Origin: Planctomycetota bacterium | GTDB lineage: Bacteria; Planctomycetota; B15-G4; JADJEK01 | Assembly (NCBI GenBank): GCA_044225365.1 | Contig: JBGAIQ010000001.1 | Span: forward strand, 320,001-384,000 | Direction: 5' to 3' | DNA: 64,000 nucleotides | Part shown: positions 3,918 through 23,543 of the stretch, piece by piece | Layout of the letters: each line of letters starts with the position of its first letter | How positions within the stretch are numbered: the stretch's first letter is position 1 | Notes under the pieces: model-generated | What the model was told of the DNA's origin: nothing | The model's input: the letters and a program-made list of their open reading frames with translations, nothing else | The model's database searches: none | Program-made: the position numbers and the translations under genes

Positions 3918-4748
3918 TCAACCACGGAGGAGCGTCAGAGCCGACTGCGGCTGCTGGTTCGCCTGCGCGAGGATCGCGAGCGACGCCTGCTGGATGATCT
4001 GGTTACGGGTCAGGTCGGCCGACTCGTGCGCGACGTCGACGTCACGGATGCGGGATTCCGCGGCCGTGATGTTCTCGATCTGCGTACCGAGGTTCGCGAT
4101 GGCCGAATTGACGCGATTCTCCGCGGCGCCAAGACGAGCGCGGAACGACGACACCGTATCGATGGCGTTGTCGATCGCGGCGAGAGCGGCCGACACGTCG
4201 CCCGTCGAACCGATGTCGATCGAGGCGATGTTGAGGGCGCTCGTACGGACGGAGTCGAGGGTCACGGAGACCGTGTCGACGCCGGACTGCGCGTTCAAGC
4301 CGATGCCGAACTCGACGGACGTGTTGCTGCCGTCGAGGACGTTGATCGAGTTGAACTGGACCTGCTGAGCGATGCGGTCGACTTCCGACACGAGCTGACC
4401 GAGTTCCGACTGGAGCGTGTCCTTGTCGTTGGCCGAGGTCGTATCGCTGTTCGACTGGATCGCGAGCTCGCGCAGACGACCGAGGATGTTCGAAACCTCG
4501 TTCAGACCACCTTCCGCGACCTGCGTGAGCGAGATCGCGTCGTTGGCGTTGCGCGAGGCCTGGTCGAGCGAGCGGATCTGCGCACGCAGACGCTCGCTGA
4601 TGGCCAGACCTGCCGCGTCGTCGGAGGCCGTCGCAATGCGAAGACCGGACGACAAACGCTTGAAGTTGCCCTCGAGGCGGTGCGTCACGCTGGAGAGGTT
4701 CTTCTGAGCCGTCAGCGAGGCGATGTTGTTGTTGATGCGAAGTGACAT
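3918..4748 (-). CDS. fliC: Flagellin (short, 276 aa)
   Basis: MSLRINNNIASL...RLSSGLRIATASDDAAGLAISE and AESRIRDVDVAHE...QANQQPQSALTLLR; start ATG 4748. Confidence 0.98.
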   Translation of the reverse strand: MSLRINNNIASLTAQKNLSSVTHRLEGNFKRLSSGLRIATASDDAAGLAISERLRAQIRSLDQASRNANDAISLTQVAEGGLNEVSNILGRLRELAIQSNSDTTSANDKDTLQSELGQLVSEVDRIAQQVQFNSINVLDGSNTSVEFGIGLNAQSGVDTVSVTLDSVRTSALNIASIDIGSTGDVSAALAAIDNAIDTVSSFRARLGAAENRVNSAIANLGTQIENITAAESRIRDVDVAHESADLTRNQIIQQASLAILAQANQQPQSALTLLRG

Positions 4749-4842
4749 GTTGTTCCCACCTGTCCGCGGCAGCCGACTCGGCGCTGCCAACCCGGAAGTA
4801 GGACGTCCGCTTGACGGCGGTAGCCCAAAGCTTCGACACGGT

Positions 4843-5038: not shown

Positions 5039-5821
5039 GTGGACAAGTTCTCGCTCATCGGCGCCATTCTCGGCCTCTTCGCCGTCTTCGGCGGCGCGTT
5101 GATGGAAGGTCTCCATTTCGACGCGATCATGATTCCGACTGCCGCGATCATCGTGTACGGCGGAACGATCGGCGCCGTCTTCCTCCAGTCGAGCGCGGAA
5201 GAGGTGAAGTTCGCGCGAACCATGCTGGGGCAGGTATTCAAGGAGAGCAAGCTCGACGCGGAATCGATCCTCGGGGAGATCCTCGAACTGTCGAAGATCG
5301 CGCGCCGCGACGGCATGCTCGCGCTCGAGACGAAACTCGCCACGATCTCCGACCCCTTCCTCGTGAAGGCCCTCGGACTGCTGATCGATGGAGTGGCCAG
5401 TAAGGAACTGCGCGAGCGGCTCGAGATCGCGATGGAGAAGGAAGAGGAGAAATTCGGGGACGCGGCCCGCGTGTACGAGGCGGCCGGTGGTTACGCCCCG
5501 ACGGTCGGGATTCTCGGCGCCGTGCTCGGCCTCATCCACGTCATGAAGTCCCTCGACGATCCCTCGAAGCTCGGTCCCGGTATCGCCGTCGCCTTCGTCG
5601 CGACGATCTACGGGGTCGCGACCGCGAACCTCATCGCGCTGCCGATCGCCGGAAAATTGAAGGCCCGGGGTCGAGCCCTGAAGGCCGCGCAGTCGATGAT
5701 CCTGGAGGGCGTCGCCGGCATCGCCGACGGGCAGCCCACCTCGGCGCTCGAATCCACGCTGCGCTTGATGCTCGGCGATCATGGCGGCGGCAAGCACGAG
5801 GGCGAGAAGAAGGCGGCCTGA
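5039..5821 (+). CDS. motA: Flagellar stator protein MotA
   Basis: ARRDGMLALE torque-residue motif, GYAPTVGILGAVLGLI, GIAVAFVATIYG; GTG start. Confidence 0.96.
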   Translation: MDKFSLIGAILGLFAVFGGALMEGLHFDAIMIPTAAIIVYGGTIGAVFLQSSAEEVKFARTMLGQVFKESKLDAESILGEILELSKIARRDGMLALETKLATISDPFLVKALGLLIDGVASKELRERLEIAMEKEEEKFGDAARVYEAAGGYAPTVGILGAVLGLIHVMKSLDDPSKLGPGIAVAFVATIYGVATANLIALPIAGKLKARGRALKAAQSMILEGVAGIADGQPTSALESTLRLMLGDHGGGKHEGEKKAA

Positions 5822-5847: not shown

Positions 5848-6576
5848 ATGGCGAGGAAGCACAAGCACGAAGAACACGTGAATCACGAGCGCTGGCTCGT
5901 GTCGTACGCCGACTTCATCACCCTCTTGTTCGCGTTCTTCGTGATCATGTACGCGCTCTCCGAGGTCGACAAGAACAAGCTGAAGAAGTTCGCGAACTCG
6001 GTGCAGTTCGCCTTCGCGCACGTCGGAACGGGCGGCACGCAGGCGATGGGGAAGAACCCGAATCAGAAGAAACCGAACATCATCGGCGATGCGTTTCCCA
6101 AGGGCGAGCGCAGTTCCGATCCGGGTCCGTACGAGAGTCTGCAAGGCGTCGTGAAGTACCTCGAGGAATCGCTCGTGAAGCATTTCCTCAAGGAAGAGAA
6201 GAGCAAGGCCGAGCTCATCGACGATGGAAAGGCCGTGATCGTCCGAATGCCCGTCGAGCGCCTGTTCGCGCCGTCGGGCGCGCAGCTGCGGCCCGACCGC
6301 TATCAGTTCCTGCAGGACCTCGGGTGGTGCATCCTGACCTATCACCTCAAGATCGAGGTGAACAATGAGGTCGAGCTGCCCTTCGGAGATCTCGAGCTCG
6401 GTCAGAACGATCTCGCCTGCCGCCGCGTGAATGCATTGGTGAGCGGGATCTGGAAGTCCAACGTAAGGAACAAGGTGAACATCATCTCGCGGGTGCTCCT
6501 CAAGGAACTGGACGAAGTGAAGCACTCCGAGGCGGAGAACGGTCGCTCGATCGTCGAATTCCGCTTCACGCGCTGA
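5848..6576 (+). CDS. motB: MotB-family stator subunit with degenerate OmpA-like domain
   Basis: HERWLVSYADFITLLFAFFVIMYALS (conserved Asp) follows motA; the C-terminal domain lacks GHTD, NWELS and NRRVE motifs. Confidence 0.85.
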   Translation: MARKHKHEEHVNHERWLVSYADFITLLFAFFVIMYALSEVDKNKLKKFANSVQFAFAHVGTGGTQAMGKNPNQKKPNIIGDAFPKGERSSDPGPYESLQGVVKYLEESLVKHFLKEEKSKAELIDDGKAVIVRMPVERLFAPSGAQLRPDRYQFLQDLGWCILTYHLKIEVNNEVELPFGDLELGQNDLACRRVNALVSGIWKSNVRNKVNIISRVLLKELDEVKHSEAENGRSIVEFRFTR

Positions 6577-6582
6577 GACGAC

Positions 6583-7296
6583 ATGGCGCATCGGACGGAG
6601 GTACGTGATCCCCTGCGCTCGGACCGGCCCTGGTCGTGGCGCGACTTCGTCGTCCTGCTCTATGCGCTGCTGTGGGTCCATCGCGGATTCGCCGATCTCG
6701 ATCGCGTTCACGCGGTGCGCAGCTCGTATGTCGCGCGAGCCGAAGCCGTTTCCGCAAGGGCGGAGCCGGCTCGGAAGCCAAGGATCGCGACGCCGCGGAT
6801 CGTCACTTGCGCGTGGCCATCCGGCGAACGTGTCCCCGAACCGGGCCCGTTCGTGACCCTCGAGGGCGTCATGAAGTTCCTCGAAGAGTCGATCGTGAAG
6901 AACTTCCGCAGGGAAGAGAAGATCAAGGCGCAGCTCATCGACGACGGGAAGGCCGTGATCGTCCGGATGCCCGTCGAGCGACTGTTCGCCCCGTCGGGCG
7001 CGGAGGTCCGAGCGGACCGCCGCCGGTTCCTCGAGGACCTCGGGTGGGTCATCGGGACCTACCGCGTGATGATCGAGGTGGACCATCGAATCGAACTCCC
7101 TCTGGGGGACCCGCAGGTCGGTCAGGACGATCTCACCACGCGGCGCTCGAATGCGGTGGTCCGCGTAATCTCGAAGGCGGACGCAGCGACCGGCGTGAAC
7201 GTCGTCTCCCGGGTCTGCCTCGAGGAATTCGGTGGCGGAAGGCCCGCCGGTGCCGAGCCCAGCCGATCGGTGTTCGAGTTCCGTTTCACGCGCTGA
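6583..7296 (+). CDS. Second MotB-like paralog (divergent TM segment)
   Basis: C-terminal half closely parallels 5848-6576 (identical LIDDGKAVIVRMPVERLFAPSGA, both end EFRFTR); N-terminal WSWRDFVVLLYALLWV aligns to WLVSYADF. Confidence 0.75.
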   Translation: MAHRTEVRDPLRSDRPWSWRDFVVLLYALLWVHRGFADLDRVHAVRSSYVARAEAVSARAEPARKPRIATPRIVTCAWPSGERVPEPGPFVTLEGVMKFLEESIVKNFRREEKIKAQLIDDGKAVIVRMPVERLFAPSGAEVRADRRRFLEDLGWVIGTYRVMIEVDHRIELPLGDPQVGQDDLTTRRSNAVVRVISKADAATGVNVVSRVCLEEFGGGRPAGAEPSRSVFEFRFTR

Positions 7297-7301
7297 GACT
7301 T

Positions 7302-7401
7302 GGCGGCGGCGGCTGCGATCCGTGACCGCCGAAATCGGCGGCGGCGGCTGCGATCCGTGACCGCCGAAATCGGCGGCGGCGGCTGCGATCCGTGACCGCC
7401 G
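7302..7401. repeat. 35-bp tandem repeat (~2.9 copies), REP-like
   Basis: Unit GGCGGCGGCGGCTGCGATCCGTGACCGCCGAAATC at 7302, 7337 and 7372 (partial); fills the gap between convergent genes; junctions form CCGCCG-AAAT-CGGCGG hairpins. Confidence 0.92.
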
Positions 7402-7403
7402 GG

Positions 7404-8918
7404 TCAGCGGCCGACGGTCTGGAGGGCGCGGTCGACGAGTTTTCGCCAGGGGCGCAGCGCGGGAGTCGAGAAGCGCGGGGTCGAGCGCGGGTCCTTGCCC
7501 TCGGAGAGGAGGGTGAGGAGTTCGATGCCCATACGACAATCGGGATCGGCGGGAAGGGAGGCGAACGCATCGAGCGCGCGCTCGAACTCGCCGCAACCGA
7601 GGCGAGCTTGGCCAAGGCGGGGCATGACGAGACTCGCCTCCGCACCGTCCACCAGCGCTCTCTCGAGTTGCTCGGCGGCACCCGCGCAATCCCCGCAATG
7701 CAACAACAACTGCGCGAGGCGCAACCGTGTGCCGAAATCCTTCGGATGTGCAGCAAGGGCGTTCGCGTAGTCCGATGCGGCGCCGACGAGATCATTCCCC
7801 TCGAGGCGCAGCCGCGCGCGAAGCAGGTACGGATCGAGTTTCCCCGCGTCGAGAGCGATGGAGCGATCGAGGCAACGCATTGCGGCGCGACGGTGTGACA
7901 GGTTCGCCAGCGCACGGCCCATCCCGAAATACGCGTACGGCCCCGTGACGCCCGGCTCCGGCGGAATGGCGTGGAGCTGGCGATCCGCGAGCCGCAAGCG
8001 AGCGTACGTCCGGAACGAAGCGCGGTGATCGCCGGTCTTCGCCTGGAGGTGACCGAGGACGAACAGCAGATTAGGGGTCTCGCCGAAGCGCTTGCGACCG
8101 TCCGTGACGATCGCCAGTGCTCCCTCCACGTCGCCCCGATGTTCGGCCTCGAGAGCGAGCAGCGCGTAGATCTCGGGACAGAACGACAGGTCCTTCGAGT
8201 CGGAATGGGGCATCGACTCGACGAGTTTTCGCGCCGTGTTCAGGGCTCTCTCAGCCTCGTCGCGCTTGTCGTCGAAACGGCGCAAGAAGTCACCGTACTT
8301 GTACCAGGAGTACGCGTGATTCGGATGGAGCTCGATCTGACGCTGGAAGAGTCGCATGTTGCGCGCATCCTTGTCACGATCGAGGACTCGCTGTTTCAGG
8401 TAGCCATCGTGATGGACGACCGCGGAATCGAGCGGCCCGAGTTTCATTCCACGGCGCTTCGCGTAACCGATGAGCGACGGGATCACCTGCTCATGGATGC
8501 AGAACTCGAAGCGAATCGAGGGATCTCGGCGGAAGAGGCGCAGGATCCCACACTGATGGATGCGATCGCCGCCGAGGTGATTCAGGAACTTCAGGTAGTA
8601 GCCGCACACGCGCCGATTCTCGATCGCAGCGACGATCGCCTCGCCCGCGCCGGGCTCCAGCCACTCATCGGCGTCGAGTACCAGGATCCAGTCCTTCGTC
8701 GCGGACGCGAGGGAGAGGTTGCGGACGGCGGCAAAGTCGTCCTCGAACCGAGTCGTGATGACCTTGTCGGTGTAACGCCGCGCGACGGCAACGGTGTCAT
8801 CGGTCGATCCCGTGTCGACGATCACGATCTCGTCGACGAAGCGCTTCACCGAGTCGAGCATTCGCGGAAGCAGATCCGCTTCATTGCGAACGATCGCGGC
8901 GAGGGTGAGGGTCGTCAT
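7404..8918 (-). CDS. GT2 glycosyltransferase with C-terminal TPRs (flagellin glycosyltransferase-like)
   Basis: IVRNEA...VDTGSTDDT...DDFAAVRN...WILVLDADE, IHEQ, HHDGY, then TPR helices; start ATG 8918. Confidence 0.88.
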   Translation of the reverse strand: MTTLTLAAIVRNEADLLPRMLDSVKRFVDEIVIVDTGSTDDTVAVARRYTDKVITTRFEDDFAAVRNLSLASATKDWILVLDADEWLEPGAGEAIVAAIENRRVCGYYLKFLNHLGGDRIHQCGILRLFRRDPSIRFEFCIHEQVIPSLIGYAKRRGMKLGPLDSAVVHHDGYLKQRVLDRDKDARNMRLFQRQIELHPNHAYSWYKYGDFLRRFDDKRDEAERALNTARKLVESMPHSDSKDLSFCPEIYALLALEAEHRGDVEGALAIVTDGRKRFGETPNLLFVLGHLQAKTGDHRASFRTYARLRLADRQLHAIPPEPGVTGPYAYFGMGRALANLSHRRAAMRCLDRSIALDAGKLDPYLLRARLRLEGNDLVGAASDYANALAAHPKDFGTRLRLAQLLLHCGDCAGAAEQLERALVDGAEASLVMPRLGQARLGCGEFERALDAFASLPADPDCRMGIELLTLLSEGKDPRSTPRFSTPALRPWRKLVDRALQTVGR

Positions 8919-9091
8919 GGGCGGGTGCTCTCGAATCGATTCGTCGCGATGTCGCACGCGAGATGCCGCAAGGATTGCGGGTAGAGAGCGCACGCTCTCC
9001 ACAATCTCTCATCGGCGTTTCGATCGTCGAACTTGGGAGGAACCGAGTTCGCTCTCGCCGCGAGTGACGCGAAGGTTTTTCCCTGATCGCC

Positions 9092-9172: not shown

Positions 9173-10960
9173 GTGGACCCACGAGAGACCCGAGCGCAGA
9201 AGATGAGCGACGACGAAGAGAACGTGAGCGGGAGCGGCGCTGAGGACGTCGGCGGTGAGCCGACGAATCCGATGCAGCCGCAAGACCTCGCCGCGGAGTC
9301 GAGCGAGGCGCTGCCGATGGGCGACGACTTCGAGGAGCTGCCGGAAAGCGACTCGAACGTCGACGACTCGCCGGAATCGCTGGACGAGAGTTCGCAGTTG
9401 CTCGATGCGTTCAAGTCGCTCGAAGCGGATCCGCTCGCGGACGAACTCGCTGGGGACGAGGCTTCATCCTCGCACGAGACGCCTCGGGACGTGCCCGAAC
9501 TCGACGAGGAAAAGCCGAAGAAGAAGCGTGCGACGCGATCCCGTTCCAGCAAGACGAAGAAGCCGCGCAAGCCGTCCGGGCGCAAGCGGACGAAGAAGTC
9601 CAAGGACGAACTGGTCGAGACGCCGAGGGAGCCGGCCGACGAATCAGCGGTCACGGGGGCACGAGAAGCGGAATTCGCTTCGATGTCGGAGGAGGTCGCT
9701 GCCGCGCCGGAAACGCGTACCGAGTCGAATCCTCCGGAGGATCGGCGTGCAGCGGAGAGTGCAGTCGGAGCCGCTGAGGCCGCTCCCGTCGGAGCCGACG
9801 GTTCGGCTTTCCCGTTCATGAACGACGGAGAACACTCGCTCGACGATCTCGTGATCGACAGTGCGGATCTGACCGACACCGAATTCGCCGCGGCCGAGAC
9901 CGTTGCGATCGAAGACGCGGCCCGCGCCGCTGTCGCCGAAGCTCGCGCATCCCGCACGTCGAACAACGCGCGAAGCGAGGATTCCGCTGCGGCCCACGAC
10001 TCGGTCGAGCCGGTCACCGACGCCCACACCGACGCGCCGGCGACGCCGTTCGCCAAGCGCCTGCTTTCGCGCCTCTCGTCCGCGTGGGCATCCAACACGG
10101 CCGCCGCGACCGCGAGTCGCTTTCGGCGAACGATCGTTCGATCGGTCGCGGTGGGTGTCTTCGCCATGGCCGCCGGATTCGGCTATGGCGCCGCGGTGAA
10201 GCTGTTCTTCGGCAAGAAGCACGCCGACTTGAACGGGAATCAGATCGCGAGTTCGGCGCCGACGAACTCGAACGATGCGGACCCCGCGACGCCCGTGATG
10301 AAGGGTGCGAAGCAGGACGAGCCCGCGTCCACCAAGGGCGACGCGAGCAAGACCGACGAGAAGTCGCCGCCTTCGACCCCGAGTACCGACCCCGAGTCGG
10401 TGACCGAGAAACCGCAGGCGGAACCAGCCGTGAACGATTCGCAGAAGAGCGAATCGGCTTCGTCGACCGCCGAATCGAAGGGCGAGAACTCCGAGCCTTC
10501 CACCGCGAAGACGACACCCGTCGCCCCTTCGAACGACGAGAAGGCGGATCCCGCTACGGCGAATCCGCTGTCGCAATCCGGCGACTCGAAAGCCCATGAT
10601 GCCGCGCCAGCGCGTTCGAAGGGCGCAGGGGGGTTCGAGATGCCTCCGCTGAAATCCGCGGTTCAGGACCCGAATCACCCGCTCGCGAAGGGCCGACGAG
10701 CCCTGGAGACCGGCGACTTCGTCGCAGCCCGCCGCATGGCGGCCGGCTACCTGCTCCGCGAGGACGGCCTCTCCGAACAAGATCGGTTGCTGGTTCCGCA
10801 AGCGTACGCGCTCCTCGCCGACGTGATGAAGCGGGAATGGACGGAGGCGCACTCCGCCGATCGGAAGCCCGCGGCGAAGGAGCCGGCGGCGGAGTCGCAG
10901 GGCGAGAAGCACGGTGGCGGCGAGAACGAGGGTGAGCATCTCGGAGGCGAGAAACCATGA
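9173..10960 (+). CDS. Hypothetical bitopic membrane protein: acidic disordered N-terminus, one TM, low-complexity linker, C-terminal TPR-like helices
   Basis: TM VAVGVFAMAAGFGYGAAVKLFF; C-terminal LAKGRRALETGDFVAARR...QAYALLAD; ATGA-coupled to the next gene; alternative start ATG 9203. Confidence 0.75.
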   Translation: MDPRETRAQKMSDDEENVSGSGAEDVGGEPTNPMQPQDLAAESSEALPMGDDFEELPESDSNVDDSPESLDESSQLLDAFKSLEADPLADELAGDEASSSHETPRDVPELDEEKPKKKRATRSRSSKTKKPRKPSGRKRTKKSKDELVETPREPADESAVTGAREAEFASMSEEVAAAPETRTESNPPEDRRAAESAVGAAEAAPVGADGSAFPFMNDGEHSLDDLVIDSADLTDTEFAAAETVAIEDAARAAVAEARASRTSNNARSEDSAAAHDSVEPVTDAHTDAPATPFAKRLLSRLSSAWASNTAAATASRFRRTIVRSVAVGVFAMAAGFGYGAAVKLFFGKKHADLNGNQIASSAPTNSNDADPATPVMKGAKQDEPASTKGDASKTDEKSPPSTPSTDPESVTEKPQAEPAVNDSQKSESASSTAESKGENSEPSTAKTTPVAPSNDEKADPATANPLSQSGDSKAHDAAPARSKGAGGFEMPPLKSAVQDPNHPLAKGRRALETGDFVAARRMAAGYLLREDGLSEQDRLLVPQAYALLADVMKREWTEAHSADRKPAAKEPAAESQGEKHGGGENEGEHLGGEKP

Positions 10961-12537
10961 GTCCCGTCGCACGCACGCTACCGCTCGCCACACTGTTCCT
11001 CGCGATCGTCCCGAGCCTGACGAGAGCACAGTCGGAGATCGAACTCCTGCCGCGACACCCCGAGGTGGTTGCGCGCGAGGGCAAGGATCACTCGATGCGC
11101 TTCACCGTTCGTGGTCGCGATTGTGCGATCGTCGACTACCTCGCGGTGCTCGCGGAGCGCGGCGGGATCTCGATCGTGAGCGATGAGATCGCGAAGATCC
11201 AGTTGAAGGCGACGCTCGCGACGGTCGAGCTCTACGACCGACGGATCGATCAGATCATCGAGCTGCTCGCCGCCGACGCCGGAGTCGACTCGGAAGTGGA
11301 TTCGACGGGCGAGAAGTTCAAGCTCGTCGGGGTCGCAGCGGGAAGCGATCGCGCCCTGCTTCGCAACTCGATCGAGCAGTTCTACAAGATGGCGCTCGCT
11401 CGCCAGGGCGACGACGAGACGAACGCGCGCTGCCTCGCGGGTCTGGCCGAGATCCTGGAGAGATCCGGTGACTATGCCGGGGCGTACGCGTCCTTCGAGC
11501 AGTTGCTCGCGGAGCACTCGAGCTCGCCGTTCTCCACGGACGCCGAACTCAATCTCGCCGACTGCTACATGCAGCTCGATCAGAATGCACGCGCCAATCG
11601 GGTGCTGCGATCGTTCCTCGCCAAGTGCTCCGACCCAAAGCGCGCGGAGAAGGCGCTGCGTCGACTCGTGAAGCTCCTACTCGAGCAGAAGCGCTTCCCG
11701 GAGTTGGTGACGATGCATGAGGCGTTCGAGCGCATCGGCGTCCTCGAGGGCGAAACACTCGTGGAACTCGCCGATGCGGGCGCCGTGATGATCGAGGAGA
11801 GCGACGTCGACGTCTCCACGTTCCTCCTCGGCTGCTTCCGTGCGTTTCCGAAGGAGCACGCGATGCTCGGTCCCGTCCTCGCGCTCGCCTTCACGAAGCG
11901 CGGTGACGACGAGGCTTCTCGCATCATCCTCGAGAAAACCGCCCAGTCGCTCGACAATACGATCGATTCGACGTCGGCGCTCCTCGCGTACAGCGAGCTC
12001 TCGCGACGCGCCGGTCACTTCCCCGCGGCGTTGCTGTTCGCCGAACGTGCAGTGATGAAGTCCGAGAACAATCCCGTCCTTCGTCGCCGCGCGCATCTGC
12101 TGCTCGTCGACGTCTACGACGCTCTCGGCGACGCACCGCGCGTCTACCACCATCTCTGGGAGGCCGAGCAACTGTCGTCGCTCGAAGATGCACCGAAGCT
12201 CGCTCTCCGCGCCGCCGAGTTCGCGATGGATCGCAACGAACCCGAGCATGCGCGACTGCTGTTCCATTCCGCGGGCCAGTACGAGGGTGTCGGCCTCGAC
12301 GCCAGTCTCGGCGAAGCTCGCGCGCTGCTCCTCGCCGGGGACACCGATCGAGCCATGATGCATCTCGAGGCCCTCCTCCGCGACGACATGAGCGCAACGG
12401 AGCGCCGACGGGTCGAACTCTTGATGGTCGACTGTCATCGTGTCGCGCACGAGTACGACAAGGCCCTGGCCGCTCTCGAAGGCAATCCGCCGGAAACGAA
12501 GACGCCGGACGCGAAGGCGCCGGAGGCGAAGAAATGA
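10957..12537 (+). CDS. Secreted TPR protein with N-terminal STN-like domain
   Basis: Signal peptide (..SLTRA-Q), then FTVRGRDCAIVDYLAVLAERGGISIV...TVELYDRRIDQIIELLAADAGV (STN-like), then many TPRs. Confidence 0.75.
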   Translation: MSPVARTLPLATLFLAIVPSLTRAQSEIELLPRHPEVVAREGKDHSMRFTVRGRDCAIVDYLAVLAERGGISIVSDEIAKIQLKATLATVELYDRRIDQIIELLAADAGVDSEVDSTGEKFKLVGVAAGSDRALLRNSIEQFYKMALARQGDDETNARCLAGLAEILERSGDYAGAYASFEQLLAEHSSSPFSTDAELNLADCYMQLDQNARANRVLRSFLAKCSDPKRAEKALRRLVKLLLEQKRFPELVTMHEAFERIGVLEGETLVELADAGAVMIEESDVDVSTFLLGCFRAFPKEHAMLGPVLALAFTKRGDDEASRIILEKTAQSLDNTIDSTSALLAYSELSRRAGHFPAALLFAERAVMKSENNPVLRRRAHLLLVDVYDALGDAPRVYHHLWEAEQLSSLEDAPKLALRAAEFAMDRNEPEHARLLFHSAGQYEGVGLDASLGEARALLLAGDTDRAMMHLEALLRDDMSATERRRVELLMVDCHRVAHEYDKALAALEGNPPETKTPDAKAPEAKK

Positions 12538-13691
12538 AGACCGCCATCGTCTGTTTTGCCCTGGGAGTGGGTTTCGCCTACACGGTGTTCGACGGCGAGT
12601 CGCCGGCGCCGGTCCAGGCACCCGCGAAGCCCGAGACCGACCCCAAGAAGGCCAAGGAGCCCGCAGCGGAGCCCGCACCGGCGCCAGATGCGTCGAAGAA
12701 GCCAGCGGATCCAAACGCGAAGCCCGCCGAGCCGGACGCGAAGCCTGCGGATCCGAATGCAAAGAAAGAAGAGAAGCCGGAAGCGGCGGTTCCGGAAGCG
12801 AAGGACGTTGCGCGGCCCCTCCCGCACGACGGAACGGAGGAAACCGGTCCGAGTGTGTCGGTGCCGACGGTGACGGCGACCGCGACCGGTGGATCCCTCG
12901 CGCCCGACATCGGGTCCTACGAGAACGGACAGGAAGAGGCCGCGCGCATCGTCGCGGAGGCGACGAGCGGACTCGAGAGCCAGACACCGCTCAGCGATCA
13001 GGAGATGAAGGCGCTCCTCCGCGACGTCCTCGGCGGCGCCGATAGCGACGTCAGCGCGCTGGACGTGCTCGAGAAGCAAGTCCTCCAGGAACGGCTCGAA
13101 CTGAACGCCCTCATCGGCCAGGGACCCGACGCAAAGAGCCTCCTCGACAAGATCCCGGGATTCAACGACGAACTCGAGAAGATCGGGATTCCGGCCGACA
13201 TCGCGGAGCAGATTCGCAATCTCTCCGCCAAGGTCATCGAGCTGCACGGCGAGAAGAGTCTGCGCGACTGGACCAAGTACGAAGAGATCGGCAAGAAATC
13301 CGAGCCCGAGGGCTTCAAGTCGATCACGGATCCGAGCGCTACCGCGGAAGCGGCGCCGCCTCCGCCCAAGACCCGGCCGCGGTCCTCGCTTCCGAAGCTC
13401 GAAGCCGCATTGCTCTTCCAATCGGGCAACGCGGACGAGGCTCTCGAGATCCTCTCGAAGCTGCCCGAGGGCGACCTCGCTGCGCAGGATCGGTTCATCC
13501 TCGGAAGCTGCCTCGTCGCGAAGCGACAGTTCGAGCAGGCCGCGGCCGTCCTGAAGCCGCTCGCCGAGTCGAAGGACAGCGACATGCTCGCACAGGCTGC
13601 GAAACGTCAATTGAAGCGCATGGAGATGATCGAAGCCGGACTCGTCGGCCTCGATCCGCTCGAGAAGGCGCGCGTGGAGAATCAGAAATGA
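12534..13691 (+). CDS. Membrane-anchored or secreted Pro/Ala-linker protein with C-terminal TPR
   Basis: Hydrophobic N-terminus, Pro/Ala/Lys-rich linker, C-terminal LLFQSGNADEALEIL...FILGSCLVAKRQFEQAAAVL; ATGA overlaps on both sides. Confidence 0.75.
   Translation: MKTAIVCFALGVGFAYTVFDGESPAPVQAPAKPETDPKKAKEPAAEPAPAPDASKKPADPNAKPAEPDAKPADPNAKKEEKPEAAVPEAKDVARPLPHDGTEETGPSVSVPTVTATATGGSLAPDIGSYENGQEEAARIVAEATSGLESQTPLSDQEMKALLRDVLGGADSDVSALDVLEKQVLQERLELNALIGQGPDAKSLLDKIPGFNDELEKIGIPADIAEQIRNLSAKVIELHGEKSLRDWTKYEEIGKKSEPEGFKSITDPSATAEAAPPPPKTRPRSSLPKLEAALLFQSGNADEALEILSKLPEGDLAAQDRFILGSCLVAKRQFEQAAAVLKPLAESKDSDMLAQAAKRQLKRMEMIEAGLVGLDPLEKARVENQK
12699..12764 (+). repeat. 21-bp coding repeat x3 (KPA[DE]P[ND]A)
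   Basis: KPADPNA-KPAEPDA-KPADPNA-K in the linker of 12534-13691. Confidence 0.7.
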
Positions 13692-14950
13692 CCAAGTCTC
13701 CTTCCACCCTCGAGAAGGGCGGCGATCTCGCCGCGCTCCGCGCCCTCTCGGACGCTGCGCGCCGCGTCGAGGCCGCATACTCCAAGCTGCGCCACGGCGC
13801 TGCGCGGCTCGATCAGGAACTCGCCGACGCGAATCGCCGACTCGAGCAGAAGGTCGTCGAGTTGGAACACCTCTCGGGGTCGCTCGCCGCCGTGCTCTCC
13901 GCGATCCCGTGCGGGGTCGTGGTCGCGGATGGCGACGGCGTGGTGATCATGGCGAATCCCGCGGCGCAGCGGATCCTCGGCGTGAGCCAGAAGGATCTGC
14001 TGGGACGGCCGGCCGCCTCGGTCGTCGACGAGAACGGCCAGAAGCTCCTGCTCCTGCCGCGCGGTGAATGTTCCGACATCGAGCGGCCGGTCGCTTCCCC
14101 CGACTCCAAGGAAGGGGCTCGGATCGTTCGCGGCAGCGTGGTTGCCGTGAAGGACGCCGCCGGCGAATTCCTCGGTCGCGTCGAACTGCTCGACGATCGG
14201 ACCGAAGTGAAGACATTGGAGGAAGAAGTGCGACGCCTCGACCGGCTGGCCGAGCTCGGTCGCGTCGCCGCGATCCTCGCCCATGAGATCCGCAATCCGC
14301 TCTCCGGCATCCGGGGCTTCGCCGGGATGCTCGAGCGAAAGCTCAAGGATGGGGACGGTCGTGAATCCGAACTTCGCTACGCCCGCCGGATCTGCGAGGG
14401 CGCGGATCGCGCCGACGCGATCATCGACAGCGTGCTCTTCCTCGCTCGCCCGCGCCCGCTGCGTCACGAGACCGTCGACGTCGAGAGCTTCTTCTGCGAT
14501 TGCTGGGAGAGCGTTGCGCATGCCGATCCCGCTCGCGCCAGGGGCGTCGAGGTCAAGCTCGACGTCTCGCCCCGCGGCCTCGCGATCCACGCCGATCGAG
14601 TGCGCCTCGCTCAGGGCGTCTCCAACCTCCTCACGAATGCTCTCCATGCGACGAGCTCGACCGGTGGCAAGGGACACATCGAACTCTCGGCGCGGGTGAA
14701 CGGCGAATTCATGACCCTGCGAATCGCGGACGACGGCCCGGGCATCGATCGGGAATCGTTGCCGCATCTCTTCGAACCGTTCTTCACGACGAAGAGCGAG
14801 GGCGCGGGCCTCGGCCTCGCGCTGGTCCAGCGCGTCGCGGAGCTGCATGGCGGCAAGGTCCGCGTGACGAGCGAGAAGGGCAAGGGCGCGGCGTTCTGCC
14901 TCGACCTCCCGATGCACAAGAACCTCGAGACGGAAACGGCCTGCGCATGA
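13688..14950 (+). CDS. Cytoplasmic PAS histidine kinase, FleS/FlgS-like
   Basis: N-terminal coiled coil, PAS (ANPAAQRILG), H-box LAHEIRNPL, DDGPG, FEPFFTTK, GAGLGL; no TM. Confidence 0.9.
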   Translation: MTKSPSTLEKGGDLAALRALSDAARRVEAAYSKLRHGAARLDQELADANRRLEQKVVELEHLSGSLAAVLSAIPCGVVVADGDGVVIMANPAAQRILGVSQKDLLGRPAASVVDENGQKLLLLPRGECSDIERPVASPDSKEGARIVRGSVVAVKDAAGEFLGRVELLDDRTEVKTLEEEVRRLDRLAELGRVAAILAHEIRNPLSGIRGFAGMLERKLKDGDGRESELRYARRICEGADRADAIIDSVLFLARPRPLRHETVDVESFFCDCWESVAHADPARARGVEVKLDVSPRGLAIHADRVRLAQGVSNLLTNALHATSSTGGKGHIELSARVNGEFMTLRIADDGPGIDRESLPHLFEPFFTTKSEGAGLGLALVQRVAELHGGKVRVTSEKGKGAAFCLDLPMHKNLETETACA

Positions 14951-16416
14951 TCGAGAACGTACTGATCGTCGACGACGAACCGCTGGCGCGCGAGTTCCTC
15001 GCGGAGTTCCTCTCCGACAAGGGAATCCACGTGGTCGCCTGCGACAACGCGCAGGACGCTTTCTCCCGGCTCACCGAAGGCCGCTTCGACCTGGTGATCA
15101 CGGATCTGCGGATGCCCGGCGACGATGGGTTCGCGCTCTTGCGCCGGATCCGACTTTCCGGCCGCGAGCTTCCGGTGATCGTGAACACGGCGTACGGCTC
15201 GGTCGACGCCGCAGTGAAGGCCCTGAAGGAAGGCGCGTTCGACTTCCTCACCAAGCCGCTGCGACCGGAGCTCATCGATTCGGTGCTGGCGAACGTCTCG
15301 CAGTACATCGCTCAATCGAATTCGAGCGGTGTCGCCGGTACGGCCGGACTCGCCGCGCCGCCGATCGACCGCGCTCGCGCGTGTCTCTCGGCTGGCATGC
15401 CGCTCGTCGGCAAGTCGCAGGCGCTGCGCGGACTCGTCGACACCGCGATCCGTGTCGCGAGGTCGCGCGCCACGGTCCTGATCACGGGCGAGAGCGGCAC
15501 GGGCAAGGAGTTGTTCGCCCGCCTCATCCACAAGGAATCGCCGCGGCGCGACCGGCCGTTCGTGCGCGTCAACTGCGCGGCGCTCGCGGAGACGCTCCTC
15601 GAGAGCGAGTTGTTCGGACATGAGCGCGGCGCGTTCACCGGTGCGGTCGCGCGGCGCGAGGGTCGCTTCGAACTGGCGGATGGTGGCACGTTGTTCCTCG
15701 ACGAGATCGGAGAGACGAGTCCCGCGCTGCAGGCGAAGCTCCTGCGCGTGCTCGAAGAGCGGGAGTTCGAGCGTGTCGGCGGCAGCAAGACGCTGACGAC
15801 CGACGTCCGCGTCATCGCGGCGACGAATCGCGACCTCGAGAAGGAGATCGCCGCCGGCAAGTTCCGCGACGACCTGTTCTATCGCCTGAAGGTGGTACAG
15901 CTCGCGATCCCCGCGCTGCGGGAGCGTCGCGACGACATCGAAGCGCTCGCGCTGCACTTCCTCGAGAAGTACGCCCGCGAGAACGGCTCGCGCGTGAAGC
16001 GCATCAGCGACGCTGCGATGACAATGCTGAAGACGCAGGGCTGGCAGGGCAACGTGCGCGAGCTCGAGAACGCGATCGAGCGCGCCGTCGTCCTCGATCC
16101 CGGCGAGACCCTCGAGCCGAGGCACTTCGGCATCGCCGGCGTCAGCGGAACGGGTGACGAGGCGGGCGCGACGGGCGTGCCCGACGTCTCGGCGCACGTC
16201 GGATGCACGCTCGAGCGGGTCGAACGCGCGCTCATCCTGCGAACGCTCGAGAGCACGGGCAATCGCCGCAAGGAAGCGGCGCGCATCCTCGGCGTCACGC
16301 CGCGCACGCTCACGAACAAGATCGCTCAATTCCGTCGCGAAGGGATCCATGTCGGGCCGCCGCAGCGCCAGCGCGCGGGGGTCGGTGCGATGGCCTTCCA
16401 CTCCGAGGAGGTTTGA
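14947..16416 (+). CDS. Sigma-54-dependent response regulator, FleR/FlgR/FlrC-like
   Basis: REC (LIVDDE, TDLRMP), GESGTGKE, GAFTGA, FRDDLFYRL, HTH; true start ATG 14947. Confidence 0.93.
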   Translation: MIENVLIVDDEPLAREFLAEFLSDKGIHVVACDNAQDAFSRLTEGRFDLVITDLRMPGDDGFALLRRIRLSGRELPVIVNTAYGSVDAAVKALKEGAFDFLTKPLRPELIDSVLANVSQYIAQSNSSGVAGTAGLAAPPIDRARACLSAGMPLVGKSQALRGLVDTAIRVARSRATVLITGESGTGKELFARLIHKESPRRDRPFVRVNCAALAETLLESELFGHERGAFTGAVARREGRFELADGGTLFLDEIGETSPALQAKLLRVLEEREFERVGGSKTLTTDVRVIAATNRDLEKEIAAGKFRDDLFYRLKVVQLAIPALRERRDDIEALALHFLEKYARENGSRVKRISDAAMTMLKTQGWQGNVRELENAIERAVVLDPGETLEPRHFGIAGVSGTGDEAGATGVPDVSAHVGCTLERVERALILRTLESTGNRRKEAARILGVTPRTLTNKIAQFRREGIHVGPPQRQRAGVGAMAFHSEEV

Positions 16417-22697: not shown

Positions 22698-23543
22698 ATG
22701 GGCAACGTGATCTCACGCGTCGTACTCGTCGCATTCGCCGTGGTCGGCCTGTTCACCGCCGGCCTCATCGGGACGCTCGGCGTCCGCGGCAAGCTGAACC
22801 GCGAATCGCTCGCGGAACTCGCGGGAGTGAAGGACGAGAACGCCGAGAAGCCAGCGGGCGAGGAAAGCGCGACGGGCGACGTTTCGAAGGACGCGGCCAA
22901 GTCGAACGCCGAGGACGGCAAGGAGCACGGCAAGGAGGCGGCCCCGAACGGAGGGCGTGCCGAATCGTCGCCGCATGCCGTAGCTTCGCTCGCCAGCGCG
23001 GGCCTCGATCGCATCGTGCTGCCCGATCCGTTCTCGAGCGAGAAGACTCACGAACTCTTCGAAGAGCTCGAAGCGACCCGCAGCGAGCTGAAGAACCAAC
23101 TGATCGCCGCACGGCAGAAGGAAGCCGATCTCGAGCTCATCCGGGCGGACCTGAATCGCCGCTGGGACGAGCTCGATCAGCGCGAACAGGAGCTCGAGGA
23201 GTCCCGCAAGGGTGTCGAGGCCGACAAGGTCGACCTGCGCGACAAAACGGTCCTTCTCGAAGAAGCCGAAGATGCGAACTTGAGAGATGCAGCCAAAAAG
23301 ATCGAAAAGATGAAAGCGCAGGCGGCCGCCGCCCTGCTCGAGACGAAGGATCCGGCCATGGCGGCGAAGATCCTGAGCAGTATCGGTGACCGCGAGGCGG
23401 GCAAGATCATGGAGAACCTGAAGCCGGAGTTCCTGAGCAAGGTCCTCGAGAAGGCGATCAACATCATCCGACCGAAGTCGGTGGGATCGAGTTCGACGTC
23501 GAAGGACGGTTCGGGCAGCGCGCCAGGCCAGGACAAGCCGTGA
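22698..23543 (+). CDS. YlxF/MotE/FlbB-like protein (TM, coiled coil, MgtE_N-like domain)
   Basis: IEKMKAQAAAALL...AAKILSSIGDREAGKIMENL; position after fliJ. Confidence 0.75.
   Translation: MGNVISRVVLVAFAVVGLFTAGLIGTLGVRGKLNRESLAELAGVKDENAEKPAGEESATGDVSKDAAKSNAEDGKEHGKEAAPNGGRAESSPHAVASLASAGLDRIVLPDPFSSEKTHELFEELEATRSELKNQLIAARQKEADLELIRADLNRRWDELDQREQELEESRKGVEADKVDLRDKTVLLEEAEDANLRDAAKKIEKMKAQAAAALLETKDPAMAAKILSSIGDREAGKIMENLKPEFLSKVLEKAINIIRPKSVGSSSTSKDGSGSAPGQDKP

Follow-up and report, generated by a model that had tools for sequence, protein, structure and literature searches.

The 64,000-nucleotide stretch analysed here, hereafter the window, comes from the genome of an uncultured planctomycete (Planctomycetota bacterium, assembly GCA_044225365.1, contig JBGAIQ010000001.1, positions 320,001 to 384,000) and carries a flagellar gene cluster that includes the stator genes motA and motB1. 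Textbook accounts of the flagellar motor have MotB anchored to peptidoglycan via a canonical OmpA-type pocket. In this organism motA and motB1 very probably form the sole, conserved and functional-looking stator, in which the fold of the MotB periplasmic domain is kept and its canonical peptidoglycan-binding signature is largely lost. The lineage-wide remodelling of the textbook stator anchor is real. The fuller statement, that a sole conserved stator with a dismantled signature is positioned mainly by periplasmic protein contacts, is offered tentatively, as its chances fall somewhat short of even. Protein anchoring of MotB1 is plausible.

The stator genes and the N-terminal part of MotB1

The stator A subunit of 260 amino acids is encoded by motA (5039-5821, forward strand), which is matched by the Pfam families MotA_ExbB (2.2e-29) and MotA_N (4.8e-10) and exceeds the cut-off of the NCBIfam model PRK09109, 'flagellar motor protein' (274.5 bits against 237). 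Residues 1-233 align with the solved MotA 9luc (E 2.4e-53). The charged segment RRDGMLALE, which the initial annotation had described as kept, lies opposite RREGVLALE of the solved MotA (9luc/9lu9). The start of motB1 (5848-6576, forward strand; 242 amino acids) follows 27 bases past the motA stop, and its reading frame is intact, with a third-position GC content of 0.86. The gene thus has the position of a motB, directly downstream of motA and inside flagellar genes: flagellin and fliD flank the pair on one side, and the genes from fliE to fliN lie further downstream. The flagellin gene (3918-4790, reverse strand; Flagellin_N 8.3e-41, Flagellin_C 6.6e-28) is divergent from motA, and the flagellar genes of the window comprise fliF, fliG, fliH, fliI, fliL, fliM, fliN, flgC, fliE, fliD, fliS and flagellin. 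FlgI and FlgH are encoded elsewhere in the genome, and its flagellar gene set is complete.

The genome assembly (6.53 Mb in 103 contigs, 94.3% complete) contains exactly one match to MotB_plug, which is motB1, the sole stator B subunit; the search for another canonical motB that had been proposed as a check returned nothing further. No second stator was found among the three MotA_ExbB matches of the genome, which are motA and two genes without an adjoining MotB. One of these two is followed directly by two ExbD genes; the other has a TPR/YfiO-like gene just upstream, the side that was scanned.

MotB1 opens with the plug and a transmembrane helix bearing the channel residue Asp22 (residues 4-56; 5857-6015, forward strand). 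This is its sole Pfam match (MotB_plug, PF13677, E 1.3e-21); it includes WLVSYADF at residues 16-23, and D22 is invariant in 120/120 aligned MotB sequences. The plug, the transmembrane helix and the channel Asp are therefore those of a MotB, as first described. A linker follows (residues 57-95; 6016-6132, forward strand; mean clade identity 0.61), which is disordered in an AlphaFold2 (AF2) model, its predicted confidence (pLDDT) staying below 50 over residues 55-88. The remainder is a divergent OmpA-like domain (residues 96-242; 6133-6573, forward strand), recognised by the AF2 model, Foldseek and VIA-align. The suggested profile check came back blank: the Pfam OmpA family (PF00691) has no match on MotB1 even at E<=1, although in a listing of the 120 best MotB relatives 78 carry it. 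The top NCBIfam match, PRK09038 MotD, is confined to residues 2-172 and stops at 98.3 bits where 283 are required, so that MotB1 is not recognised as a whole-protein MotB or MotD equivalog. The earlier impression of a functional stator is supported by the MotA score above the NCBIfam cut-off, by the canonical plug, transmembrane helix and Asp22 of MotB1, and by conservation across the family.

The peptidoglycan-recognition signature

Five core residues of OmpA-like peptidoglycan binders are given for Helicobacter pylori MotB in the available part of PMC3080404 (Gly161, Asp164, Leu179, Arg183 and Arg226). The corresponding motif appears in the accessible part of PMC5104382 as TD(x)7NxxLSxxRA, with the Asp, Asn and Arg as the most critical residues. 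Three segments of MotB1 quoted by the initial annotation are all present at these places. IEVNNEVELP (residues 169-178; 6352-6381, forward strand) stands where the end of the strand and the loop with EGHTD would be. In GQNDLACRR (residues 185-193; 6400-6426, forward strand) the Asn is lost (Q186), Leu189 and Arg193 are kept and there is an extra Arg192, and GRSIVEF (residues 232-238; 6541-6561, forward strand) replaces NRRVEI. The signature was read straight from a real sequence and involves no statistical pattern, so chance is not at issue. Among the five core residues, Leu189 and Arg193 are present, the Gly and the Asp are replaced, and the last Arg occurs only as the out-of-register R233.

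The comparison was extended to a clade of 33 sequences, made up of MotB1 and its 32 best matches (P0002-P0033), and to 60 canonical relatives, in all of which the H, D, W and helix Arg as well as the N and R of NRR are invariant. R193 is found in 120/120 aligned MotBs and 33/33 clade members. L189 is nearly invariant in the 120-sequence alignment and kept in 32/33 clade members, and R192 is kept in 30/33. The register of GHTD varies by method. MAFFT on 26 sequences places E174 opposite the Asp, whereas MAFFT on 120 sequences and hhalign pair N173 with G, E174 with H, V175 with T and E176 with D; in the hhalign comparison a 33-sequence clade profile matched a 60-sequence canonical profile with a probability of 100% over 204 columns as far as residue 208. 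Neither register has a Gly, its place being taken by Asn or Val according to the register, and in both a Glu (E174 or E176) stands where the Asp would be. An Asp or Glu occupies position 176 in 22/33 clade members, position 174 in 16/33 and either one in 31/33. Across the 33 sequences, positions 171, 173, 175 and 177 (MotB1 numbering) are hydrophobic and the alternate positions mostly charged, as in any ordinary amphipathic strand; the clade tallies are 14 Arg and 8 Glu at position 170 and 8 Arg and 5 Asn at position 172.

The Asn of NxxLS (position 186) is found in 0/33 clade members. The NRR pair is reduced to the single R233 (32/33), which aligns with the Asn of NRR, one position off register, and E237 is kept in 29/33. 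Residues that are invariant in the clade and new to the domain are D150, R151, F154 and G159, to which R138, R148 and R192 are to be added. A phmmer search with the C-terminal domain only, against 1.84 billion representatives, recovered 5 proteins at E<=0.001, and no canonical OmpA protein was among them. The initial claim that MotB1 has no peptidoglycan-binding motif thus stands for the Gly, the Asn and the NRR pair, which are lost, and for the Asp, which has become Glu; it fails for Leu189 and for the downstream Arg, which had been counted as lost and is retained as R193. That account overstated the loss, and the canonical signature is best described as largely, not wholly, gone.

Fold and loops of the periplasmic domain

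MotB1 was modelled with AF2 from the 120-sequence alignment (mean pLDDT 74). In blocks of 10 residues the C-terminal domain scores 87-96, save for residues 111-120 (67), 201-210 (77) and 221-230 (73). Foldseek matched the model to PA0833 (4.5e-8), a Desulfovibrio MotB-like protein, YiaD, Salmonella MotB-C, PomB and MotS, with E values from 4.5e-8 to 1e-4. Superposition by VIA-align gave Z scores of 15.6 for PA0833 (root-mean-square deviation 2.6 Å over 133 residues), 15.3 for YiaD, 14.9 for PomB (2.9 Å, 139 residues), 13.6 for MotS and 13.2 for Salmonella MotB (3.3 Å, 140 residues). The title of the PA0833 structure, the top fold match, speaks of an enlarged peptidoglycan-binding pocket. The OmpA-like fold expected of a MotB is thus predicted to be retained in MotB1.

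According to the available part of PMC3080404, the N-acetylmuramic-acid site is the beta2-alpha2 loop, and the peptide groove lies between the beta1-alpha1 and beta2-alpha2 loops. As a like-for-like control, the canonical relative P0088 (MotB of Bdellovibrio sp. according to its source) was modelled with AF2 on its own 60-sequence alignment. In the two models beta2 spans residues 168-178 of MotB1 against 165-170 of P0088, the beta2-alpha2 loop has 4 residues against 14, and alpha2 starts at residue 183 against 185. The beta3-beta4 connection is 11 residues without a helix in MotB1 and 18 residues with a short helix in P0088. The peptidoglycan groove is formed by three 'petal' loops, and two of them are therefore predicted to be shortened or remodelled. 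The structure prediction suggested at the outset accordingly recovered an OmpA-like fold, with the groove loops shortened in the model.

Conservation in the family and spread in the phylum

The 32 best matches after the query, in a collection of 5.8 billion proteins, are full-length or nearly so and 40-74% identical. They carry the plug domain only, except for P0031, which is the product of motB2, a tandem paralogue in the window, and has no Pfam domain. Their named members are all 'Planctomycetes/Planctomycetota bacterium'. The next sequences after P0033 are canonical MotBs with PF00691, whose matches extend over roughly two-thirds of the query. An alignment of the 33 clade sequences has 18 invariant columns.

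Among 42 genomes of the order that were searched, full-length motB1 matches were found in 10/11 other genomes of the window's family, each with a single MotB_plug gene; in one of the ten (G023) the motB is split over two contig ends. The eleventh genome, which has no motB1 match, is 81% complete and does carry the gene for TPR526, a secreted protein described below. The gene order is kept in 7/7 family loci fetched, as far as the contigs reach: fliS-fliD-fliC facing left, motA-motB facing right, a glycosyltransferase gene facing left, then orf595-TPR526-TPR385, a sigma-54 activator gene, flgC and fliE.

Mean pairwise identity was compared by region between 30 clade sequences (motB2 and P0032/33 left out) and the 60 canonical relatives. 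The values are 0.89 in the clade vs 0.72 in the canonical set for the plug and transmembrane helix, 0.61 vs 0.31 for the linker, 0.46 vs 0.26 for the preceding helix, 0.43 vs 0.47 for the OmpA-like core and 0.39 vs 0.54 for the beta2-alpha2 segment. Within the linker, P76, G80, P84, G86, G93 and P94 show little or no variation in the clade. These figures are indicative of an inverted constraint, in which the peptidoglycan-binding segment would be the least conserved part and the normally variable linker is unusually conserved. MotB1 is not decaying; its remodelled form appears to be an inherited state that selection maintains across the family.

Outside the family the picture is graded. In a phylum sample of 301 genomes (300 further genomes and the organism's own), 50 have a MotB match at E<=1e-5, and matches to the whole query are confined to the window's family. 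From 22 other loci of the phylum 24 MotB open reading frames (ORFs) were taken; L020, L055, L056 and L060 were dropped because the transmembrane motif was found in none of their ORFs, and the two tandem MotB-like ORFs of L021 were left out of the Pfam scan. The Pfam OmpA family reaches its gathering score in 7 of the 24, falls below it in 5 (E<=0.01) and has no match in 12. Similar degenerate MotB states thus occur elsewhere in Planctomycetota, graded from canonical through sub-threshold to none. Fifty-six MotBs were placed in a quick maximum-likelihood tree, namely 14/33 clade sequences, the 24 ORFs, 3/9 other plug-only proteins and 15/78 canonical relatives. The family clade (support 99) lies within a starred group of 23 rows, all without a passing OmpA match, which also takes in two other families and metagenomes. 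On the starred branches the 'degenerate' label must have changed at least 4 times in this tree, which used all columns, including the trait's own, so that long-branch effects are possible. Metagenome contigs searched with MotB1 yielded 42 loci, all of them distant MotBs that match chiefly the N-terminal part, and no close relative was found among them; the longest-reaching matches are 32-41% identical and the shorter ones, over about the first 20-110 residues, 44-81%.

Peptidoglycan synthesis and the canonical OmpA lipoprotein

The genome has six Mur-ligase-domain genes, three of which are clustered with a transpeptidase gene (on C90), and three transpeptidase genes overall. The Mur ligase and dcw genes look ordinary and, judged by its genes, so is the wall. 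The sole PF00691 protein of the genome is a 246-residue lipoprotein with a coiled coil (C95:405979-406716; 1099-1839 in locus L005), whose domain is fully canonical, with AGHTD, NWALGAARA and NRRVE. Its top NCBIfam matches are periplasmic regions of the MotD/MotB type, not Pal. It is present in one copy in each of 12 family genomes, and a match occurs in 42/42 genomes of the order, including 16/16 of a family without a MotB match. It was considered as a dedicated stator anchor and rejected on account of its presence throughout the order, that family included; its distribution marks it as a housekeeping wall tether and not a part of the motor. Since the peptidoglycan genes are present and the canonical OmpA lipoprotein is conserved, changed wall chemistry is an unlikely cause of the change in MotB.

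The tandem paralogue motB2

The start of motB2 (6583-7296, forward strand; 237 amino acids) lies 7 bases past the motB1 stop, and no clear Shine-Dalgarno sequence precedes its ATG. The product is 46% identical to MotB1, has a degenerate N-terminus without plug or transmembrane helix and finds no match in Pfam or NCBIfam. The absence of the helix follows from its best 19-residue hydropathy of 1.24, against 2.02 for MotB1. Pairwise ratios of nonsynonymous to synonymous substitutions (dN/dS) between motB1 and motB2 are 0.95 over residues 1-56 and 0.85 over 57-92, then 0.32 (93-120), 0.28 (121-165), 0.39 (166-205) and 0.67 (206-242), with dS lowest in the middle of the gene (0.46). A tree of the C-terminal domain pairs motB2 with motB1 as sisters (support 98); the terminal branch measures 0.68 for motB2 and 0.031 for motB1, so that the C-terminal domain of motB2 evolves about 20 times faster. 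No second motB copy was present in the 7 family loci examined. Thus motB2 is a recent duplicate, seen in this genome only, whose membrane part evolves as if unconstrained, and the decaying copy at this locus is motB2, not motB1.

Tandem motB pairs with the plug and the transmembrane helix intact in both copies were also noticed at loci L052 (genome G148) and L021 (genome G039), and both G148 copies lack an OmpA match. Tandem duplication of motB has apparently happened more than once in the phylum. The space that separates motB2 from the convergent glycosyltransferase gene holds a perfect tandem repeat with a unit of 35 bp in 2.9 copies (7302-7401, no strand assigned; Tandem Repeats Finder, 100% matches). 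It is GC-rich and has internal complementarity, and its unit has no other occurrence in the genome.

Neighbouring envelope genes

Beyond the repeat lies a gene for a family-2 glycosyltransferase fused to C-terminal TPR repeats, termed GT2-TPR (7404-9002, reverse strand; Pfam Glycos_transf_2 9.4e-20 and TPR). The gene is syntenic in 7/7 family loci, where its neighbours are flagellin, fliD and motAB, and its product may modify flagellin. Three further envelope genes follow on the forward strand. The product of orf595 (9173-10960) has an acidic N-terminus, one hydrophobic segment near residue 324 and a low-complexity periplasmic part; it matches no Pfam or NCBIfam family, and only about 55-230 of its residues are conserved, in 6/7 family loci. 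TPR526 (10957-12537) is a secreted TPR protein with a signal-peptide-like N-terminus ending in TRAQS and with TPR matches in Pfam, and is a candidate stator scaffold. TPR385 (12534-13691) has an N-terminal hydrophobic anchor and a C-terminal TPR region, with matches of 26-35% identity in 5/7 loci. None of the three belongs to a named family, and they are found after motAB in every family locus long enough to include them.

The gene for TPR526 adjoins motAB in 7/7 loci. It is present in 10/11 family genomes and in 0/30 genomes of other families in the order; in the phylum sample, the organism's own genome apart, it was found in 5/5 family genomes, with two weak matches among the other 295. Against PDB sequences its best match has an E value of 0.12 and is uninformative, and no homology to MotX, PflB or FlcA was seen. 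As a general partner of degenerate MotBs it was rejected, being confined to the window's family. Further downstream, between fliI/fliJ and fliL, orf281 (22698-23543, forward strand) encodes a coiled-coil protein that is anchored in the membrane at its N-terminus and weakly matches MgtE_N. Sub-threshold NCBIfam matches of orf281 to FlbB (30 bits, cut-off 110) and of GT2-TPR to FlcA (21 bits, cut-off 300) serve as leads only. The interval from the TPR genes to flgC/fliE (13700-16416, forward strand) encodes a PAS-HisKA sensor fragment and a sigma-54 activator that has a receiver domain, which suggests control of the flagellar cluster of the FlrBC/FleSR type.

Anchoring of the remodelled stator

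The explanation preferred here is that motA-motB1 would encode the one working flagellar stator of this planctomycete. The OmpA-like fold of MotB1 would be held together by a buried Leu189/Arg193 core while its recognition apparatus has been dismantled: the GHTD turn would have been absorbed into a longer amphipathic beta-strand, the loop that cradles N-acetylmuramic acid cut to a 4-residue turn, and the Asn of NxxLS and the NRR pair removed. The torque reaction might then be borne mainly by protein contacts, with the P ring and/or with lineage-specific periplasmic proteins, for example the TPR proteins beside motAB. The conserved linker may act as a docking segment, and any remaining wall contact would be of a kind other than the diaminopimelate (DAP) pocket. 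Several points weigh against this explanation. L189 and R193 are retained, as is an acidic residue at 174 or 176 in nearly the whole clade, and the clade-invariant D150 and R151 together with R138, R148, R192 and R233 could form a new pocket for a peptidoglycan ligand. The loop shortening is predicted from AF2 models and not taken from solved structures, and the clade and canonical alignments are unequal in depth, so that their conservation contrast is at most indicative. No analysis here identified a protein partner of MotB1, and TPR526 cannot be the general answer, since it is confined to the family and degenerate MotBs are spread far wider. A bolder version is unlikely: that much of Planctomycetota gave up the peptidoglycan anchor of the stator and turned the OmpA-like domain into a protein-docking module, that the linker and domain are held here by the adjacent lineage-specific TPR proteins as an undescribed kind of scaffold, and that motB2 is a by-product or a soluble competitor for the docking site.

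The strongest competitor, a serious possibility that is nevertheless judged less probable than protein anchoring, is that MotB1 still binds peptidoglycan directly via a remodelled pocket built from Arg193, Leu189 and Glu176 or Glu174 together with D150, R151, R192 and R233, its signature having drifted past detection by Pfam. The retention of R193 (33/33), L189 and R233 (32/33 each) and of an Asp or Glu at 174 or 176 (31/33) agrees with it, as do the fold similarity to peptidoglycan-binding domains (Z 13-15.6), among them PA0833 with its enlarged pocket, the peptidoglycan synthesis genes of an organism that makes this polymer, and the graded series of Planctomycetota MotBs from canonical through sub-threshold OmpA to none. 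However, residues 174 and 176 belong to the exposed side of a regular strand, where charges are frequent in any case. [quoted passage not shown] The glycan-binding loop has only 4 residues in the model, and no part of the protein is less conserved than the beta2-alpha2 segment.

A domain adapted to another wall polymer or to an altered stem peptide, as has been proposed for the ornithine-type peptidoglycan of spirochaetes, is improbable. Planctomycete envelopes are unusual, which counts in its favour, and Tp0624 of Treponema pallidum ties a divergent OmpA-like pocket to non-DAP peptidoglycan (PMC5104382, part available). Yet a lipoprotein with a fully canonical GHTD / NWxLxxxRA / NRRVE domain is kept in 42/42 genomes of the order, which suggests that DAP-type recognition still works there, and the Mur ligase and dcw genes look ordinary. 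Least probable of all, and by a wide distance from likely, is that motB1 is itself decaying or non-functional, with motility lost or driven by another stator. The missing OmpA match and the degenerating paralogue next door would fit such decay, and a second stator could be unassembled in a genome of 103 contigs that is 94.3% complete. It is already contradicted by the conservation data: the genome has a single MotB_plug match, the same single form recurs in 10/11 family genomes with 18 invariant columns in 33 sequences, motB1 sits on a terminal branch of 0.031 while that of motB2 measures 0.68, the frame is intact with its third-position GC of 0.86, and the rest of the flagellar cluster is intact. 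The possibility raised by the initial annotation, that a canonical motAB elsewhere powers the flagellum while this copy decays, is accordingly rejected for motB1; it is the adjoining tandem copy, motB2, that decays.

Comparison with known stator and anchor systems

In the available part of a broad MotAB survey, Planctomycetota are listed among the flagellar stators and the OmpA-homologous domain is a conserved hallmark (PMC12505986). No paper was found on a planctomycete MotB that has lost the peptidoglycan-binding signature, and the portions of PMC1586193 and PMC12505986 available here, supplements apart, contain no mention of one. If wall binding has been lost, these motors must resist torque via protein scaffolds, and scaffolded-stator designs would extend to Planctomycetota, whose motors have not been imaged in the literature found. 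If binding has been retained, the domain would represent a new minimal or alternative mode of peptidoglycan recognition.

MotB1 shares with canonical MotB/MotD-type subunits, such as Salmonella MotB-C (2ZOV/2ZVY), Vibrio PomB (3WPW) and Bacillus MotS (9LJK), the plug, the helix with its Asp, the position after motA, the preceding helix, the OmpA-like fold and the Leu and Arg of LSxxR. It differs from them in the lack of PF00691, in the replacement of GHTD, of the Asn and Trp of NW and of NRR, in a linker that is conserved instead of variable, and in beta2-alpha2 and beta3-beta4 loops that are shorter in the model. A precedent for the divergent domain is D3 of Treponema pallidum Tp0624, which is OmpA/PomB-like and, in the available part of PMC5104382, keeps the Arg, has lost the DAP-coordinating Asp and does not bind DAP. 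The likeness extends to the fold, to the conserved Arg and non-conserved Asp, and to a divergence that is lineage-wide rather than sporadic. As far as the same part of that report goes, Tp0624 is unlike MotB1 in being no stator subunit, in keeping most of the TD(x)nNxxLSxxRA frame and in having a host with non-DAP peptidoglycan, whereas the host of MotB1 keeps a canonical OmpA protein.

Periplasmic stator scaffolds are found in the spirochaete collar, with FlbB/FlcA, and in Campylobacter, with PflA/PflB. For Vibrio, the part of PMC9093738 at hand mentions a suggestion that the T ring (MotX/MotY), and not peptidoglycan, is the seat of PomAB. These systems resemble the arrangement proposed here in the idea of a B-subunit periplasmic domain that docks on proteins and in the TPR/Sel1-type repeat proteins encoded with the motor genes; the candidate counterpart in the window is the three conserved envelope proteins encoded after motAB, two of them with TPR. 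They differ in that their MotB or PomB keeps the canonical peptidoglycan-binding signature. The ExbD/TolR and gliding-motor B subunits belong to the same 5:2 motor superfamily and have no OmpA-type wall anchor; unlike them, MotB1 has a MotB plug and an OmpA-like fold, and the ExbB/ExbD genes of the genome are separate.

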